Under the pieces are notes generated by a model, which worked only from the letters and a program-made list of their open reading frames with translations, did not search any database and had not been told where the DNA came from. From Eubacteriales bacterium (lineage in GTDB: Bacteria; Bacillota; Clostridia; Oscillospirales; CAG-272), in NCBI GenBank assembly GCA_045587665.1, contig JAZNCT010000088.1:13621-77620 (forward strand): a stretch of DNA of 64,000 bases, given 5' to 3'. The stretch's first letter is position 1. Each line of letters begins with the position of its first letter. This document shows positions 13,255 through 36,621 of the stretch, in pieces. The position numbers and the translations under genes are program-made.

Positions 13255-13450
13255 TTCATTTCACCTCCCATTGTGAAAAATCAGACTTAGCAATAAATAT
13301 AAAAAATCTTTCTCCGAAAAGGCTTGCTCCAAAAAAGCGCGCACGAAGAAAGATTGCATAACAAAAAATATTAAAGTTATAAAATCGTTCCTCGGCAGGA
13401 GAGCTGCATAAATGCCGCCTTTACGGAAACCTGCTGTCTTTGGATAACAG
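13255..13450 (-). promoter_or_regulatory. Ribosomal protein L10 leader (autoregulatory 5' UTR)
   Basis: A ~200-nt 5' UTR on the minus strand contains ccaaagacagcaggt...cctgccgagg, the helix typical of Firmicute L10 leaders. It sits between the promoter and the rplJ RBS (gggaggtg). Confidence 0.6.
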
Positions 13451-13453
13451 GGG

Positions 13454-13483
13454 TATTATAGCACAACCTTTTCTGTTTGTCAA
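13454..13483 (-). promoter_or_regulatory. Consensus sigma-A promoter of rplJL
   Basis: Minus strand: TTGACA (rc of 13478-13483), 17 nt, TATAAT (rc of 13455-13460). Confidence 0.65.
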
Positions 13484-13510
13484 TAGTTTTTGAAAATTTT
13501 TTTCACTTTT

Positions 13511-13591
13511 AAAAACAAACGCAAGCCCACTGCGGTTTTCTCTCGCAACTATCTGTTTCCGAGAAAGAAAGCAGTGGGCTTTTGTTTGTTT
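13511..13591. repeat. Miniature palindromic element sharing its termini with the 35.3-36.05 kb element
   Basis: Sequence: aaaaacaaacgcaagcccactgcggttttctctcg...cgagaaagaaagcagtgggcttttgtttgttt. The right terminus gcagtgggcttttgtttg is identical to 36035-36052. The left terminus equals 35330-35347 apart from a 4-nt insertion. Both left termini continue with ttttctc. Confidence 0.7.
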
Positions 13592-13614
13592 AAAATCTTG
13601 CCGCCAAAAAGATC

Positions 13615-15426
13615 TTATTTATTCTTATTATATAGCTCTCGGAAGGCTTTGACCGTTTCGGCAAAATCGGAAATAGCGTCTCTTATGACCTCCGGTTTTG
13701 TAAGATCTATCTCAGCCACCTTTAAGCTGTCAAGAGGGCTTAGCCTGCCGCCGCATCCGAGAAAATCAAGATATTTCTTTATATAGGACTCGCCCTCATT
13801 TTCAATGCGGCGTACTATCGAAGAAGCCGCAGAAATACAGGTAGAATATTTATATACATAAAACCAACTGTAAAAATGAGGAATACGCATCCATTCAAGA
13901 GCTATTTCCTTGTCCGCAACAACATGGCCGCCAAAGTATTTTTCTATCAAAGAATAATACTTTTCACAAAGCAGCTCTTTAGTGAGAGTCTCCCCTTGCT
14001 CGCACAGACTGTGCATGGTCTTTTCAAATTCAGCAAACATCGTCTGCCTGTAGAGAGTTCCCTTATAGGTCTCCATTATCTGATTGAGGATAGAGAGCTT
14101 TTCTTCATCGCTATCAGATTCTCTCAGCTTTTTGTGGGCAAAAAGCAGCTCGTTTACAGTTGAGGCAACCTCGGCAACAAAAATTGTGTAAGAGGATCCC
14201 TGAGGGGTATTTGCCTTTGCCGAAAGATATGAGTGCATAGAATGTCCAGCCTCGTGGGCAAAGGTTGAAACATCATCCAGCTTGCCCGTATAGTTAAGGA
14301 GCATATAGGGGGCTGTGTCATAGCAGCCGGAGCTGTAAGCTCCGCCTCTCTTGCCCTTTGAAGGATAAACGTCAACCCAGTTTTCTTCCTTTATACCTTT
14401 TCTCAGCGTTTCCTGATATTCGCTGCCAAAGACGCCGACCGTGTTAAGAACCTCTTCAGTAGCTTCGTCAAAAGAATATTCCCTTGTACACGACGAGATG
14501 AGTGGTGTATACACATCATACATATGAAGCTTTGAAAGTCCCAAAACCTCTTTTTTAAGGTCATAATAATCAAAAAGCGGTTCAAGCCCATCAGACACAG
14601 TTTCTATAAGATTGTCATAGATATCCGGAGTGACCTCGTCTCTGAAGACAGACGCTGTCTGACTGTTTTCAAATCCCCTTATCTTGGAAAGAGTGACCCT
14701 CTCCTTTACATAAGAATCTATAAGGGCAGACAGCGTATTTCCAAAGCTATCATAGCTCTGATAGAGCTTTTTAAATGCCGACCTTCTCACTCTTCTGTCT
14801 TCGCTCATAAGACGAAGGACATATGTGGCCTCGGTAAGCTCAACAAGCTTTTTCTCTTCGTCTCTTATGCGGCCGAAGGAAAGCTCAGCATTGGCAAAAA
14901 CAGTCCTGATGTTGGAGTGTGAACCAAGGCTCATCTGCATATCGGCAAGGAGCTTTTCATTTTCATCCGAAAGGGTGTGGGGGCGATATCTCTGTTCTGT
15001 CTCTATCTCCCTTTTGTATTCGGCAAGCGGCGGAAAATCCTTCATCCATTTTTCGGTTGTTTCCTTGCTTATCTTAATAATTGTGGGAGAAACAAAGAAT
15101 GCCGCCGAGCCTGCGCTGCAAACAAGATTTCTCATTCTTCCCATAAGAGCCTGATAAAAATTATTTGAAAGATCCAGGTCTGCATTGAGATGAGCATAAA
15201 TATAAAGCTTATCTATAATTCTTTCAAGCCGGGTTTTGTCGCAGAACATCTCATAAAGCTCTTTTGCACCCTTTGCCATAGTGGAGGCGTGTGCGGGAAA
15301 AGCTTCTATAAGATCTTCAGCTTTTTTATAGTCCTTTTCAAAGGCATCCATGTTTTGGTATATGGCACTAAGATCCCATTTATATTTTGCCGGTATATCG
15401 GCTCTGTTCTCATTCATATCATTCAT
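13615..15426 (-). CDS. pepF: Oligoendopeptidase F (M3B family)
   Basis: 603 aa. Zinc motif HEAGHSMH, downstream EVAS/TVNE, N-terminus IPAKYKWDLSAIY typical of PepF. Confidence 0.9.
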   Translation of the reverse strand: MNDMNENRADIPAKYKWDLSAIYQNMDAFEKDYKKAEDLIEAFPAHASTMAKGAKELYEMFCDKTRLERIIDKLYIYAHLNADLDLSNNFYQALMGRMRNLVCSAGSAAFFVSPTIIKISKETTEKWMKDFPPLAEYKREIETEQRYRPHTLSDENEKLLADMQMSLGSHSNIRTVFANAELSFGRIRDEEKKLVELTEATYVLRLMSEDRRVRRSAFKKLYQSYDSFGNTLSALIDSYVKERVTLSKIRGFENSQTASVFRDEVTPDIYDNLIETVSDGLEPLFDYYDLKKEVLGLSKLHMYDVYTPLISSCTREYSFDEATEEVLNTVGVFGSEYQETLRKGIKEENWVDVYPSKGKRGGAYSSGCYDTAPYMLLNYTGKLDDVSTFAHEAGHSMHSYLSAKANTPQGSSYTIFVAEVASTVNELLFAHKKLRESDSDEEKLSILNQIMETYKGTLYRQTMFAEFEKTMHSLCEQGETLTKELLCEKYYSLIEKYFGGHVVADKEIALEWMRIPHFYSWFYVYKYSTCISAASSIVRRIENEGESYIKKYLDFLGCGGRLSPLDSLKVAEIDLTKPEVIRDAISDFAETVKAFRELYNKNK

Positions 15427-34348: not shown

Positions 34349-34765
34349 ATGCCGGAAAATATTGACTCTAAAAACGTCACCACGGCTGCTCTTGCTTATC
34401 TTGGTGACTGCGTTGTGGAAATATGCGTCCGCTCTCTGCTTGTAAAAGAAGGGCTTTCAAGCTCACGTCATCTGAATTCCGAAGCACTTAATTTTGTAAG
34501 AGCTCCGGAGCAGGCCGAAGCTCTACATAGAATTTTGGATGTTCTCACAGAAGAAGAAAACGCTGCATACCGAAGAGGAAGAAATATCGGCCACACAAAC
34601 ACCCCAAAAAACTGTACTGTTTCCCAGTATAGGCACGCAACAGGCTTTGAGGCTCTTTTCGGTTATCTTCATCTTGAAGGAAAAAACGAAAGGATCAATG
34701 AGCTTTTCTGCTTGGCATATGCGGATAAAATAGAAGATCTCAGAAATAAAAAATCAAAATTATAA
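34349..34765 (+). CDS. mrnC: Mini-ribonuclease 3
   Basis: ALAYLGDCVVEICVR ... NAAYRRGRN ... YRHATGFEALFGYLHLEG: RNase III-like catalytic signature without a dsRBD. Confidence 0.8.
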   Translation: MPENIDSKNVTTAALAYLGDCVVEICVRSLLVKEGLSSSRHLNSEALNFVRAPEQAEALHRILDVLTEEENAAYRRGRNIGHTNTPKNCTVSQYRHATGFEALFGYLHLEGKNERINELFCLAYADKIEDLRNKKSKL

Positions 34766-35270: not shown

Positions 35271-35277
35271 AATAAAC

Positions 35278-35306
35278 TAAAATCCGTCCAAAAGGACGGA
35301 TTTTTC
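35278..35306 (+). terminator. Intrinsic terminator of ppiB
   Basis: aaaatccgtcc-aaaa-ggacggatttttc. Confidence 0.85.
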
Positions 35307-35328
35307 TTTTATAAACAAACTTCGAAAA

Positions 35329-36052
35329 CAAACAAAAGCCCACTGCGTTTTCTCAACCCTAACAAACGATTTCCGATACCGAGAGCATTGAGGCGGCTTG
35401 CCTTCCCCTTTTTGCGCCGGTGATTTTGGGCGCAAAAAGGAACGGCGTGAGTTTCACGGAGCGACTTTGAAAATCGCAGACTTGCGATTTTCGGGAGCGT
35501 GGGTCCGCCGAAAGGGTGTTCTTAGAGGGAAACGCCTTTCCCTCTAAGCGCGTTTTCGTCTATTTGGGGCGTACCAAATAGACTGCCCGCGCGGCATGAG
35601 CGCAGAAAAGGTTAGAAGTTAGTTTATCACCGAGAAAAGTTATCACATATGATTTTTCAGCGACAGAGGTTTTCTGCAGTAAGTTTTTTTATATAGAGTT
35701 TCTTGCTGCACAGAATTTTAGCCTATAGATAAACGCATAGGATAAAGTTTGGCTGAAATGTTTCTATCTTCTTGCGCTCATGCCGCGCGGGCCCCTCCTT
35801 TGGCATTTCCCAAAGGAGGCAAAAGAAACATCAGAGGGGAACGCAGTTCCCCTCTGAGCACTCCCCTCCTATGAGGCCCTCGCTCCTGAAAATTGCAATT
35901 CTGCAATTTTCAAAGTCGCTCCGTAAACAGCATCGACATTCCCAAATTGCGCCATAAAGCACCGGCGCAATTTGGGTACAGCGAACCGCCAACTGCTGTC
36001 GTTCTCCGAAACCGATCGTTCGGAGTGAAAAATCGCAGTGGGCTTTTGTTTG
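35329..36052. repeat. 724-bp non-coding nested palindrome: two ~280-nt inverted arms, three conserved boxes, four covarying hairpins per arm, and a 168-nt core
   Basis: Box A is 35329-35347 and rc 36034-36052. Box B is 35456-35474 and rc 35906-35924. Box C is 35585-35604 and rc 35773-35792. All three are identical between arms. Hairpin pairs: H1 35407-35440 / 35941-35976, H2 35469-35492 / 35888-35911, H3 35521-35548 / 35831-35857, H4 35558-35583 / 35794-35819. There is no credible ORF. Confidence 0.85.
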
Positions 36053-36074
36053 GCTTGATAGATAGTTTTCTCCG

Positions 36075-36470
36075 CTATTTGAGTATCATATATATCCCCG
36101 ACCAAACCACTATAATTGCAAAAATACCCTTCAGCCAAGCTGTACTGATCTTTGAAAGCAAAAATGCCCCCAAAAGCCCGCCGAGCACTGCCGGGATCAC
36201 ATACACCCCAAACCGACTGAAATCTATATTGCCCCGAAGGGCATATATTGCCGCTGAAAGAAAGGATATGGGCAGTGTTGCCGCTATAACATTTGCAAAT
36301 ATATCTCTCCTTGCCATTTCCTCTTCCGAAAGCAGCTTTTCAAGCGCAAAGGTCATTATTATACCGCCTCCTGCTCCAAGCAGACCATTTGCAAGTCCGC
36401 CGAAAAAACCGGCAAAACAAAACAGAATCGTTCTTTCATTTGTTTTTAACTTTTCTTTTCTCATTTTCAA
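36075..36470 (-). CDS. Half-size TSUP (TauE/SafE, DUF81) family membrane transporter subunit
   Basis: 131 aa with 4 TM helices. Gly-rich motif FAGFFGGLANGLLGAGGGIIM, as in TauE/SafE proteins, which I recall as usually about twice this length. Confidence 0.6.
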   Translation of the reverse strand: MKMRKEKLKTNERTILFCFAGFFGGLANGLLGAGGGIIMTFALEKLLSEEEMARRDIFANVIAATLPISFLSAAIYALRGNIDFSRFGVYVIPAVLGGLLGAFLLSKISTAWLKGIFAIIVVWSGIYMILK

Positions 36471-36621
36471 GACCTAAAATTTTTGATCATATTACTATTG
36501 TAATTTTTTTCAATTGGTGTTATAATATAAGATAGATTTTTATACTATTTTTTCTTGATCACCGCAATAATATGCGCGATAAAGAAAAAAACGTGAAAAT
36601 ATACGAAAGGATAATCCGATA

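Follow-up and report, generated by a model that had tools for sequence, protein, structure and literature searches.

We analysed a 64,000-nucleotide stretch of contig JAZNCT010000088.1 of a Eubacteriales bacterium (Oscillospirales, CAG-272), hereafter the window, in which position 1 is the first letter of the stretch. At 35329-36052 the window contains a 724-bp non-coding palindrome. It lies between ppiB, whose terminator was placed at 35279-35304 by a terminator scan, and a convergent open reading frame (ORF) at 36075-36470 (-). Both borders had been named in an earlier annotation made from the letters alone (the sequence-only reading). The ppiB terminator stands as described there, and the gene called TSUP is genuine, with its identity refined to a half-size TauE of ~129 aa. 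We observed that the palindrome consists of two facing copies of a ~290-nt folded, RNA-like repeat, and we hold the RNA reading as a whole with moderate confidence. The repeat belongs to a new, well-supported family of structured repeat elements that has no entry in Rfam.

The two arms of the palindrome aligned end to end, at 72.6% identity by blastn and 0.70 in an alignment of four arms that includes a second genome. The sequence-only reading had described inverted units of ~280 nt with roughly 60% identity in the intervening sequence. The inverted copies are real, their homology reaches further outward than had been claimed (to 35313 and 36068), and the measured arm identity is higher, at 70-73%. 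The three blocks described as boxes A, B and C were confirmed, each with two exact inverted matches in the element against a shuffle expectation of 0-0.02 per box. The central spacer is barely palindromic (self-comparison score 4.0; shuffle mean -3.9, standard deviation 3.4). G+C content is ~53% in the arms and ~40% in their surroundings.

Hairpins H1, H2, H3 and H4 are perfect in both arms, and the stem differences between the window arms are compensated, as had been reported. In H1, 3 bp differ between the arms and 3/3 are compensated. For H3 the earlier description needed correction: the hairpin has an 11-12 bp stem and a 3-4 nt loop, not a 10-bp stem with a 7-8 nt loop, and it carries two compensated changes plus a register shift, not one change. 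Further helices missing from the earlier inventory were found in the arms: H0, the box A hairpin; P3, a G-U-rich helix around H3; H5 (GCGC-GGCAUGA-GCGC), within box C; and a short P1, in which GGG pairs with CCC of box C. Each unit reads in the order A-rich tract and H0 (box A), H1, H2 (box B), a core of P1, P3/H3 and H4, and finally H5 (box C). Against shuffled sequence, the fold z score on the box A-to-C strand was -6.0 for the left arm and -6.35 for the right arm, compared to -4.4 on the opposite strand. A direct repeat of GGAGCG flanks H2 in both arms (35456-35498 and 35882-35924) in the form acGGAGCGacttt-H2-GGAGCG; the repeat may belong to a longer helix or be left over from the insertion of a hairpin.

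The three boxes are not equivalent in role. Box C is a family-wide 3' block that contributes to P1 and H5. Box A is an A-rich tract with the 5' arm of H0, a hairpin module of terminator-like form; a separate copy of this module lies at 13.5 kb. Box B takes in the beginning of H2 and the sequence just 5' of it. Within five substitutions, box B had no match near box C in other metagenomic copies, and the box B stretch differs between the two arms of the second genome (L068). A scan of GTDB genomes for box B gave four single matches in unrelated phyla, which is chance level, and none was accompanied by box C. In the window copies, the modules 5' of the core (H0/box A, H1 and box B/H2; ~170 nt) are lineage-specific, and the add-on hairpins differ in other lineages.

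We scanned metagenome contigs for exact box C and found 56 loci, from human-gut and other metagenomes; the homologue search proposed in the sequence-only reading thus shows that the locus is not unique to this strain. At ~40 of the 56 loci a T and a 10-12 bp hairpin corresponding to H4 stand directly 5' of box C. The H4 stem sequence differs from locus to locus and the pairing is always kept, with a nearly invariant UUUC/GAAA core inside the stem. The two sides of the stem differ strongly in composition, the 5' arm being rich in pyrimidines and the 3' arm in purines (CG 238 and UA 179 vs GC 115 and AU 22). In several subfamilies box C is the last conserved block and locus-specific sequence follows straight after, and other subfamilies have an additional 14-45 nt in common past box C. 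The core homologues, at ~40 loci, come from uncultured Clostridia, and the relatives of the window genome are annotated as uncultured Clostridia or as Ruminococcaceae/Oscillospiraceae metagenome-assembled genomes (MAGs). Most family members are single units, not doublets, and the palindrome is not the basic unit. Several contigs carry more than one copy and many matches lie at contig ends, as expected for a repeat. Collections of phages, plasmids and IMG/VR gave no match to the window element, the minimal element or box C. A literature search with the box C sequence returned only an unrelated primer-like match.

We built two covariance models (CMs), R1 from H4 and box C and R2, with 137 positions, from the simplest homologues. 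The R2 core contains P1, H2, H3 enclosed by P3 (purine-rich on one side and YCUUU on the other, with many G-U pairs), H4 and H5. R2 matched both window arms and nowhere else in the window, and it also found the core in both L068 arms. Across 39 distinct H4/H5 sequences, 99.1% of cells were paired and two-sided changes occurred at 10/15 pairs, a result reached by 0/500 shuffles. For the full core (47 distinct copies), 93.9% of cells were paired with two-sided changes at 34/41 pairs; 0/500 shuffles reached the observed value, and slid controls gave 36-60% pairing. The CM that fitted these alignments was itself built on the box A-to-C strand, and the copies share ancestry. P1 hardly varies (GC in 39-43 of 43 across the family). 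H5 hardly varies either, and its variant in L065, GCCCGTGCGGCATGAGCACA, is compensatory (C6-G18 to U-A). G-U/U-G pairs outnumbered A-C/C-A pairs by 65 to 18, and this excess points to the box A-to-C strand as the folding strand. The family-wide covariation, together with that between orthologous arms described below, supports the earlier suggestion of selection on secondary structure beyond what one locus could show.

Coding potential was rejected. ORFs that start at the AUG of box C are 3-80 codons long and mutually unrelated, and the AUG is missing in the L068 copies, where the loop is GGCGGGA. The earlier statement that the element has no ORF and no transposase, reverse transcriptase or recombinase nearby agrees with our scans of the window and of the neighbours. 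Coordinates of the features are collected in the following table. The right unit starts ~7-22 nt past the tauE stop codon (36075-36077).

Coordinates of the two repeat units, their helices and boxes, and the stand-alone module (window positions)
Feature	Position and pairing	Strand	Basis or remark
Left unit, ppiB side, full copy reading box A to C	35313..35604	+	Arm alignments; CM R2 match 35511-35607, 52.1 bits; fold z -6.0
Right unit, tauE side, full copy reading box A to C	35773..36068	-	Arm alignments; CM R2 match 35770-35882, 49.5 bits; fold z -6.35
Box A left: A-rich tract and 5' arm of H0	35329..35347	+	Box match, four-arm structure
H0 left, degenerate	35338-35346 paired with 35385-35394	+	
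Box A right	36034..36052	-	Box match, fold, four-arm structure
H0 right	36043-36035 paired with 35996-35988; inner hairpin 36015-35999	-	
H1 left, 12-15 bp stem	35406..35441	+	
H1 right, 12-15 bp stem	35941-35976	-	
Box B and H2 left	35456..35498; box B 35456-35474	+	
Box B and H2 right	35882-35924	-	
H2 left	35469-35478 paired with 35483-35492, extendable to 35461-35498	+	
P1 left, 5' strand, GGGU	35501..35504, pairs with GCCC 35585-35588	+	R2 consensus aligned to window
P1 right	GGGCC 35879-35875 paired with GGCCC 35793-35789	-	R2 consensus aligned to window
P3 enclosing H3, left	35510..35557	+	Perfect inverted repeats, family covariation, four-arm structure
P3 enclosing H3, right	35821-35869	-	Perfect inverted repeats, family covariation, four-arm structure
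P3 left, G-U-rich	35510-35517 paired with 35550-35557	+	
H3 left	35522-35532 paired with 35537-35547	+	
H4 left, 10 bp stem, 6 nt loop	35558..35583	+	
H4 right, 10 bp stem, 6 nt loop	35794-35819	-	
Box C left: P1 3' strand (GCCC) and H5	35585..35604	+	Exact match, family scan
H5 left	GCGC 35589-35592, loop GGCAUGA, GCGC 35600-35603	+	
Box C right	35773..35792; H5 35788-35785 paired with 35777-35774	-	
AT-rich 168-nt spacer between box C ends	35605..35772	.	Contains AGAAGTTAGTT at 35614-35624
Stand-alone H0-type module	13510..13595	.	Box A 13516-13534, complement 13570-13588, A-tract before, T-tract after

We compared the locus with that of relatives, in which the gene order is ftsK and then, divergently, tauE-1, tauE-2, rpsO and pnp. 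L068 has ~820 nt between tauE-1 and tauE-2, with two convergent R2 matches and the same module order as in the window. In four outgroup genomes (L069-71, L072, L073 and L074), tauE-1 and tauE-2 overlap or lie 13-16 nt apart, and these are empty sites. FtsK identity between the window and L068 was 88%, compared to 77-82% with the others. Because L068 is nearest by FtsK and the outgroup sites are empty, a single insertion in the common ancestor of the window genome and L068 is the simplest explanation. The comparison of filled and empty sites suggested earlier could thus be made between the tauE genes; on the ppiB side no clean empty site was found among the relatives compared. The L068 doublet is flanked by GCAGTTTAT and GGAGTTAAT, which are identical at 7/9 positions, either by chance or as a decayed duplication.

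In the four-arm alignment, identity was 0.70 between the two window arms and also 0.70 between the right window arm and the left L068 arm; the other cross-genome pairs gave 0.655-0.673, and the two L068 arms 0.845. The window arms are as diverged from each other as from the L068 arms and all stems are kept, which largely answers the concern that gene conversion within the palindrome could mimic covariation. On these identities the window arms are old paralogues without recent homogenisation. RNAalifold on the four arms predicted 77 pairs with 21 two-sided changes and recovered H0, H1, H2, P3, H3, H4 and H5. H0 covaries as well: GCCCACUGC:GCAGUGGGC in the stand-alone copy of the window (GCAGUUGGC in the right arm) corresponds to GCGAACUGC:GCAGUUCGC in L068. 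The z score of the between-genome alignment was 17-18 for the arms and 2.5 for the central spacer, so constraint acts on the arms and not on the centre. Boxes A and C are identical between the arms in both genomes.

Both junctions of the doublet in the window are synteny breakpoints (window 35271-36621 compared to L061-L064 and L068-L074). The window order is tauE-1, the doublet and a convergent ppiB, and tauE-2, rpsO and pnp are missing there. In a strain ~96% identical in the DNA upstream of the break, homology ends 12 nt past the stop codon of ppiB; next come another terminator, a 209-aa ORF, gyrA, gyrB, two ORFs, dnaN and dnaA. We rejected the idea that the window TauE is a truncated pseudogene, as half-size TauE proteins of ~129 aa form a large family that normally occurs as a tauE-1/tauE-2 pair. 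The window TauE-1 is more diverged than FtsK predicts (0.71 vs 0.88) and may be decaying after loss of its partner tauE-2. An exact look-up of the window PpiB and TauE proteins gave no match. Just upstream of ppiB lies a gene for a 138-aa protein with a single Ribonuclease III domain (Mini-III-like; 34349-34765, +). Its proximity to the doublet is probably coincidental, because it is syntenic with ppiB in relatives that have no doublet.

Outside this locus, several copies show dispersal and rearrangement. The 209-nt copies in L053 and L054 are 93% identical, stand in unrelated flanks and have sharp ends (5'-GGGG...GCGCAAT-3'), with neither terminal inverted repeats nor a target duplication. 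L009 and L027 have only the 132-nt element in common. In L015 (818-1036) and L038 (2087-2280) the flanks are 99% identical and the element only 81%, with indels, and L038 has ~700 extra nt beside the element; such a pattern points to replacement of one copy by another, or to recombination among paralogous elements of one species. In L058 (7-80), a reverse-complemented box C, H4 and box C directly adjoin one another as a chimeric mini-palindrome, a pattern that suggests hairpin-mediated strand switching or inverted duplication at H4. Box C is duplicated 63-76 nt apart with no second H4 in L039 (7944-8039) and L065 (84-166), and in L007 (5120-5472) whole elements stand in tandem, 333 nt apart.

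By crude ORF calls, the upstream gene is co-oriented with the element in 21 cases vs 10. The count is nearer 22 vs 9, as the right window arm was mis-scored through a spurious ORF. Inspection of the flanks showed that some copies begin a few nt past the stop codon of the upstream ORF. The window arms likewise lie 3' of co-oriented genes, the left after ppiB (+) and the right after tauE (-). A Pfam scan of 112 neighbouring ORFs gave 145 families, none present in more than three ORFs, and the 25 families listed include no transposase. The 10 kb to the left and to the right of the window element contain only housekeeping genes and no transposase. The 5' flanks of the copies are variable (…AAA, …GTA, …AAC, …ATC, …GAC, …GAT), and the exact 5' boundary is uncertain. 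A motif RAGTTAGTT(T) was seen 3' of the left box C (window 35614-35624) and at both outer ends of the L068 doublet (5425, -; 6140, +). It also occurs five times in L065 (225-480), in a 38-nt tandem array that adjoins the element and combines a small GC hairpin with TGAAGTTAGTT. About 8/11 of its occurrences in 165 kb are element-associated, with ~2.5 expected in total.

The stand-alone module was identified as an inverted pair of box A with 1-2 mismatches, 73 bp long (13516-13588). Its neighbours are the 3' end of pepF (13615-15426, -) and the L10 leader (13292-13461, -), the latter being the Rfam match found elsewhere in the window. Aligned with the first 65 nt of the right arm, the module shows 80% identity. 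It has a 9-bp GC-rich stem and an inner stem between an A-tract and a T-tract. The stem GCCCACTGC...GCAGTGGGC leads directly into TTTTGTTTGTTT (13523-13595), which gives the GC-rich hairpin and U-tract of an intrinsic terminator, and from its sequence the module resembles an intrinsic terminator that works in both directions. The H0 hairpins at the two outer ends of the doublet likewise lead into a U-tract when read antisense to their own arm; the right H0 followed by TTTTGTTTGG on the + strand resembles an intrinsic terminator. The terminator scan misses the H0 modules because their loop is longer than 8 nt. The likeness to bidirectional terminators covers only the outermost ~65 nt of each arm and not H1-H5 or the core, and H0 in the arms has no U-tract on the sense strand.

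We searched Rfam 15, including HEARO, IS605-orfB motifs, ROOL, raiA and ribozymes, and found no match at gathering score over the element, in line with the earlier failure to recognise it as a known non-coding RNA. The only Rfam matches within the window element were mir-3613, at chance level, over H1 (35407-35440), and the end of a match to rnk_pseudo, the terminator stem of which is the ppiB hairpin; all others lay on the ppiB terminator or in unrelated regions. None of 20 homologue loci matched Rfam at gathering score over the element. A weak lead to remote kinship, not membership, comes from Clostridiales-2 (RF02937), a candidate small RNA motif that, like the element, is found in Clostridia. 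The 5' half of minimal homologues resembles its consensus of GGGG, a hairpin, a UUaAGGAGGGU linker and a second hairpin. Four copies from the QZLN01 metagenome (L009, L032 and both in L035) matched it at the same relative position, with homologue scores of 16.6-22.6 bits vs a gathering score of 58.6. The window copies gave no match at E <= 10. Moreover, the Clostridiales-2 model (82 positions) has no H4, P1 closure or box C/H5, which are the most conserved part of the element. A literature search on 'Clostridiales-2' found nothing relevant.

In behaviour, the element is most like structured intergenic repeats built from modules. BOX (boxA-boxB-boxC, pneumococcal), ERIC (enterobacterial), REP/BIME and REPIN repeats are multi-copy, non-coding hairpin modules in intergenic regions or 3' untranslated regions (3'-UTRs). 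They are often co-transcribed with the upstream gene, they can insert in operons, and inverted doublets occur among them as REPINs and BIMEs. The element has no sequence relationship to them, and it differs in its covarying multi-helix junction and invariant 20-nt 3' block. Its units, at 130-300 nt, are much larger than the 20-40 nt palindromes of REP/REPIN repeats and contain several different hairpins and no GTAG head, and no RAYT-like gene was seen in the 64-kb window or in the fragments examined. The palindrome-associated transposable elements (PATEs) derived from IS200/IS605 and the omega-RNAs of TnpB/IscB are similar in their asymmetric ends without terminal inverted repeats or an obvious target duplication, in their subterminal hairpins, in a sharp conserved end followed by locus-specific sequence, and in strand-specific structure. 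In contrast to these, no tnpA, tnpB or iscB lies beside any of ~40 copies, HEARO and IS605-orfB did not match the window region or the 20 homologue loci, the hairpins at the two ends of the element are unlike (H2 vs H4 sequence), and no constant 5' target motif was found. Nor is the element a miniature inverted-repeat transposable element (MITE) of the terminal inverted repeat type: the 5' end of a single unit, GGG(G)..., is not complementary to its 3' end, ...GAGCGCA(AT), and inverted arms exist only in the doublet as a whole. A group II intron, retron, integron attC site and CRISPR array were rejected, with no Rfam match, no reverse transcriptase, integrase or cas gene nearby, and unfit sizes and ends. 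We also rejected a replication origin, terminus or dif site, as GC skew shows no switch at the element. The window contains no tRNA or tmRNA. As a structured non-coding RNA in general, the element shows covariation with shuffle and slide controls far below the observed values, in alignments that are CM-fitted and among sequences that are related. Since orphan structured RNAs are already known, as are structured intergenic repeats, the element does not represent a wholly new category.

The explanation we favour, at about even confidence, is that the palindrome represents two convergent, long-diverged copies of a dispersed, non-autonomous structured-RNA repeat that acts at the RNA level. Since what was most simply a single ancestral insertion, compensatory change has kept every stem in both arms, and the spacer has drifted. 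Each arm would be transcribed toward the centre, by read-through from the flanking gene or from a promoter at the 3' end of that gene, and would fold into a stable RNA that is either embedded in a 3'-UTR or processed, or into a docking scaffold for protein or RNA. Since H0 with its U-tract occurs only on the strand antisense to its own arm, it would stop transcripts after they had crossed the partner arm and so keep antisense transcription out of the flanking genes. That the copies face each other would be a matter of history, through inverted duplication or the arrival of a doublet, and the pair would not be a functional unit, because singletons dominate the family and H1, H2 and H4 kept their local stems at the cost of pairing between the arms. 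We considered and rejected divergent central promoters that drive outward RNAs ending at H0. Weak promoter-like sites exist (one in the centre of the window element and two in that of L068), but the centre is not conserved between the orthologous doublets, which argues against a functional central promoter pair, and the G-U pattern favours the opposite strand.

Several points weigh against the favoured explanation. Transcription of the arms, the RNA ends and the strand are deduced from sequence, and a promoter and terminator scan found no conserved promoter or terminator for the arms. A canonical ppiB terminator precedes the left arm, so read-through would be weak there. The orientation bias depends on the crude ORF calls. 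As the alignments were CM-fitted and the copies related, the pair statistics overstate independence and are supportive, not formal probabilities. Box C conservation is overestimated, since the homologues were collected through exact matches to it; divergent variants exist. A process at the DNA level might also keep stems paired, through single-stranded DNA hairpins during mobilisation or mismatch correction in extruded hairpins.

A real though lesser possibility is that the element is a selfish DNA repeat (MITE-, REPIN- or foldback-like), mobilised as single-stranded DNA by an enzyme acting in trans, which would recognise the hairpins and the invariant end. The doublet would be the mobilisable form, as in REPINs, and the stems would be kept for mobility and not for a role as RNA. 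This would fit the dispersed copies in unrelated contexts with the sharp boundaries of L053/L054, presence and absence within an operon, the many matches at contig ends typical of multi-copy repeats, and the tandem, truncated and chimeric copies (L007, L036, L039, L058). It would also fit the L015/L038 pair, with nearly identical flanks around diverged elements, and the asymmetric ends that have no terminal inverted repeats. IS200/IS605 elements transpose via the lagging-strand template and have left and right ends with similar hairpins; strand-specific folding and co-orientation with genes are also expected for lagging-strand-template transposition. However, no transposase, RAYT, TnpA or TnpB occurs among the 112 neighbouring ORFs or within +/-10 kb in the window, and the element was not found in the phage, plasmid and IMG/VR collections. 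We saw no conserved 5' target motif or clear target-site duplication, and H2 and H4 at the ends of the minimal element are unlike, as opposed to the similar end hairpins of IS200/IS605. In addition, the resident orthologous copies kept their structure long after insertion as the spacer decayed, which selection for mobility of a master copy does not predict. Mobility and an RNA-level function are combined in a reading that we consider rather unlikely: the ~137-nt core, a P1-closed junction with H2, P3/H3 and H4 plus H5, would be an undescribed complex RNA class of gut Clostridia that itself defines the ends of the mobile unit (5'-GGG...GCGCA-3', free of inverted repeats, of a target duplication and of a linked transposase), spreads by an RNA-templated or ribozyme-assisted route or by a trans-acting enzyme of a kind so far not connected with such elements, and is retained for its RNA-level function.

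It is unlikely that the whole 724 bp is a single functional palindrome, one RNA or DNA cruciform with A:A', B:B' and C:C' paired into a long imperfect hairpin that carries H3 and H4 and, between the convergent genes, works as a very large terminator or insulator in both directions or is cut by RNase III. The full + strand does fold at -371 kcal/mol with A:A', B:B' and C:C' paired and H3/H4 local, yet such stability is trivial for any inverted repeat. A-tracts outside box A on both sides would give a closing stem and then a U-tract on either strand, and the A:A' hairpin that stands alone at 13.5 kb is terminator-like. L068 conserves the doublet arrangement and not just one arm, along with the identity of boxes A and C between arms seen in both genomes. 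Against this, single units make up most of the family, the arms are only 70% identical, box B is non-identical in the L068 arms, and the changes in H1, H2 and H4 keep local stems perfect as they add mismatches between arms. The G-U-rich P3 lies on the sense strand of each arm, so one arm would be misfolded in any single transcript. The three-segment stem of the sequence-only reading is accordingly possible in thermodynamic terms, and the substitution pattern neither requires nor favours it. A further reading, which is largely refuted and which we consider very improbable, takes the element as a mimic of a translation start, that is, a regulated leader or a ribosome decoy. The H4 3' arm (AGAAAGGAGG) would be a sequestered Shine-Dalgarno sequence, the 5' arm would resemble the 16S rRNA 3' tail, and the AUG of the H5 loop would be the start. 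The strong pyrimidine/purine asymmetry of H4 is consistent with this, as are copies with a 5' arm CCUCCUUU, like the 16S rRNA 3' tail, and a Shine-Dalgarno-like 3' arm AAAGGAGG, with the AUG 12-13 nt downstream. However, the ORFs from this AUG are the short, mutually unrelated ones described above, the downstream gene is often on the other strand, the L068 loop has no AUG, and the window copies face each other with no gene between them.

For the biology of these bacteria, the element is common in uncultured gut and rumen-type Clostridia and is missing from Rfam. It inserts in operons and marks synteny breakpoints and contig ends, so it matters for the assembly of MAGs and for how these genomes rearrange. 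Experiments and a database entry can start from the 137-nt covariance model and from the filled and empty sites between tauE-1 and tauE-2. RNAs this large and complex often prove to have elaborate roles, for example as ribozymes, as scaffolds for proteins or in regulation. If the RNA reading holds, the family would be a well-supported orphan structured RNA, with ~40 covarying bp, an invariant 20-nt 3' block and lineage-specific add-on hairpins.

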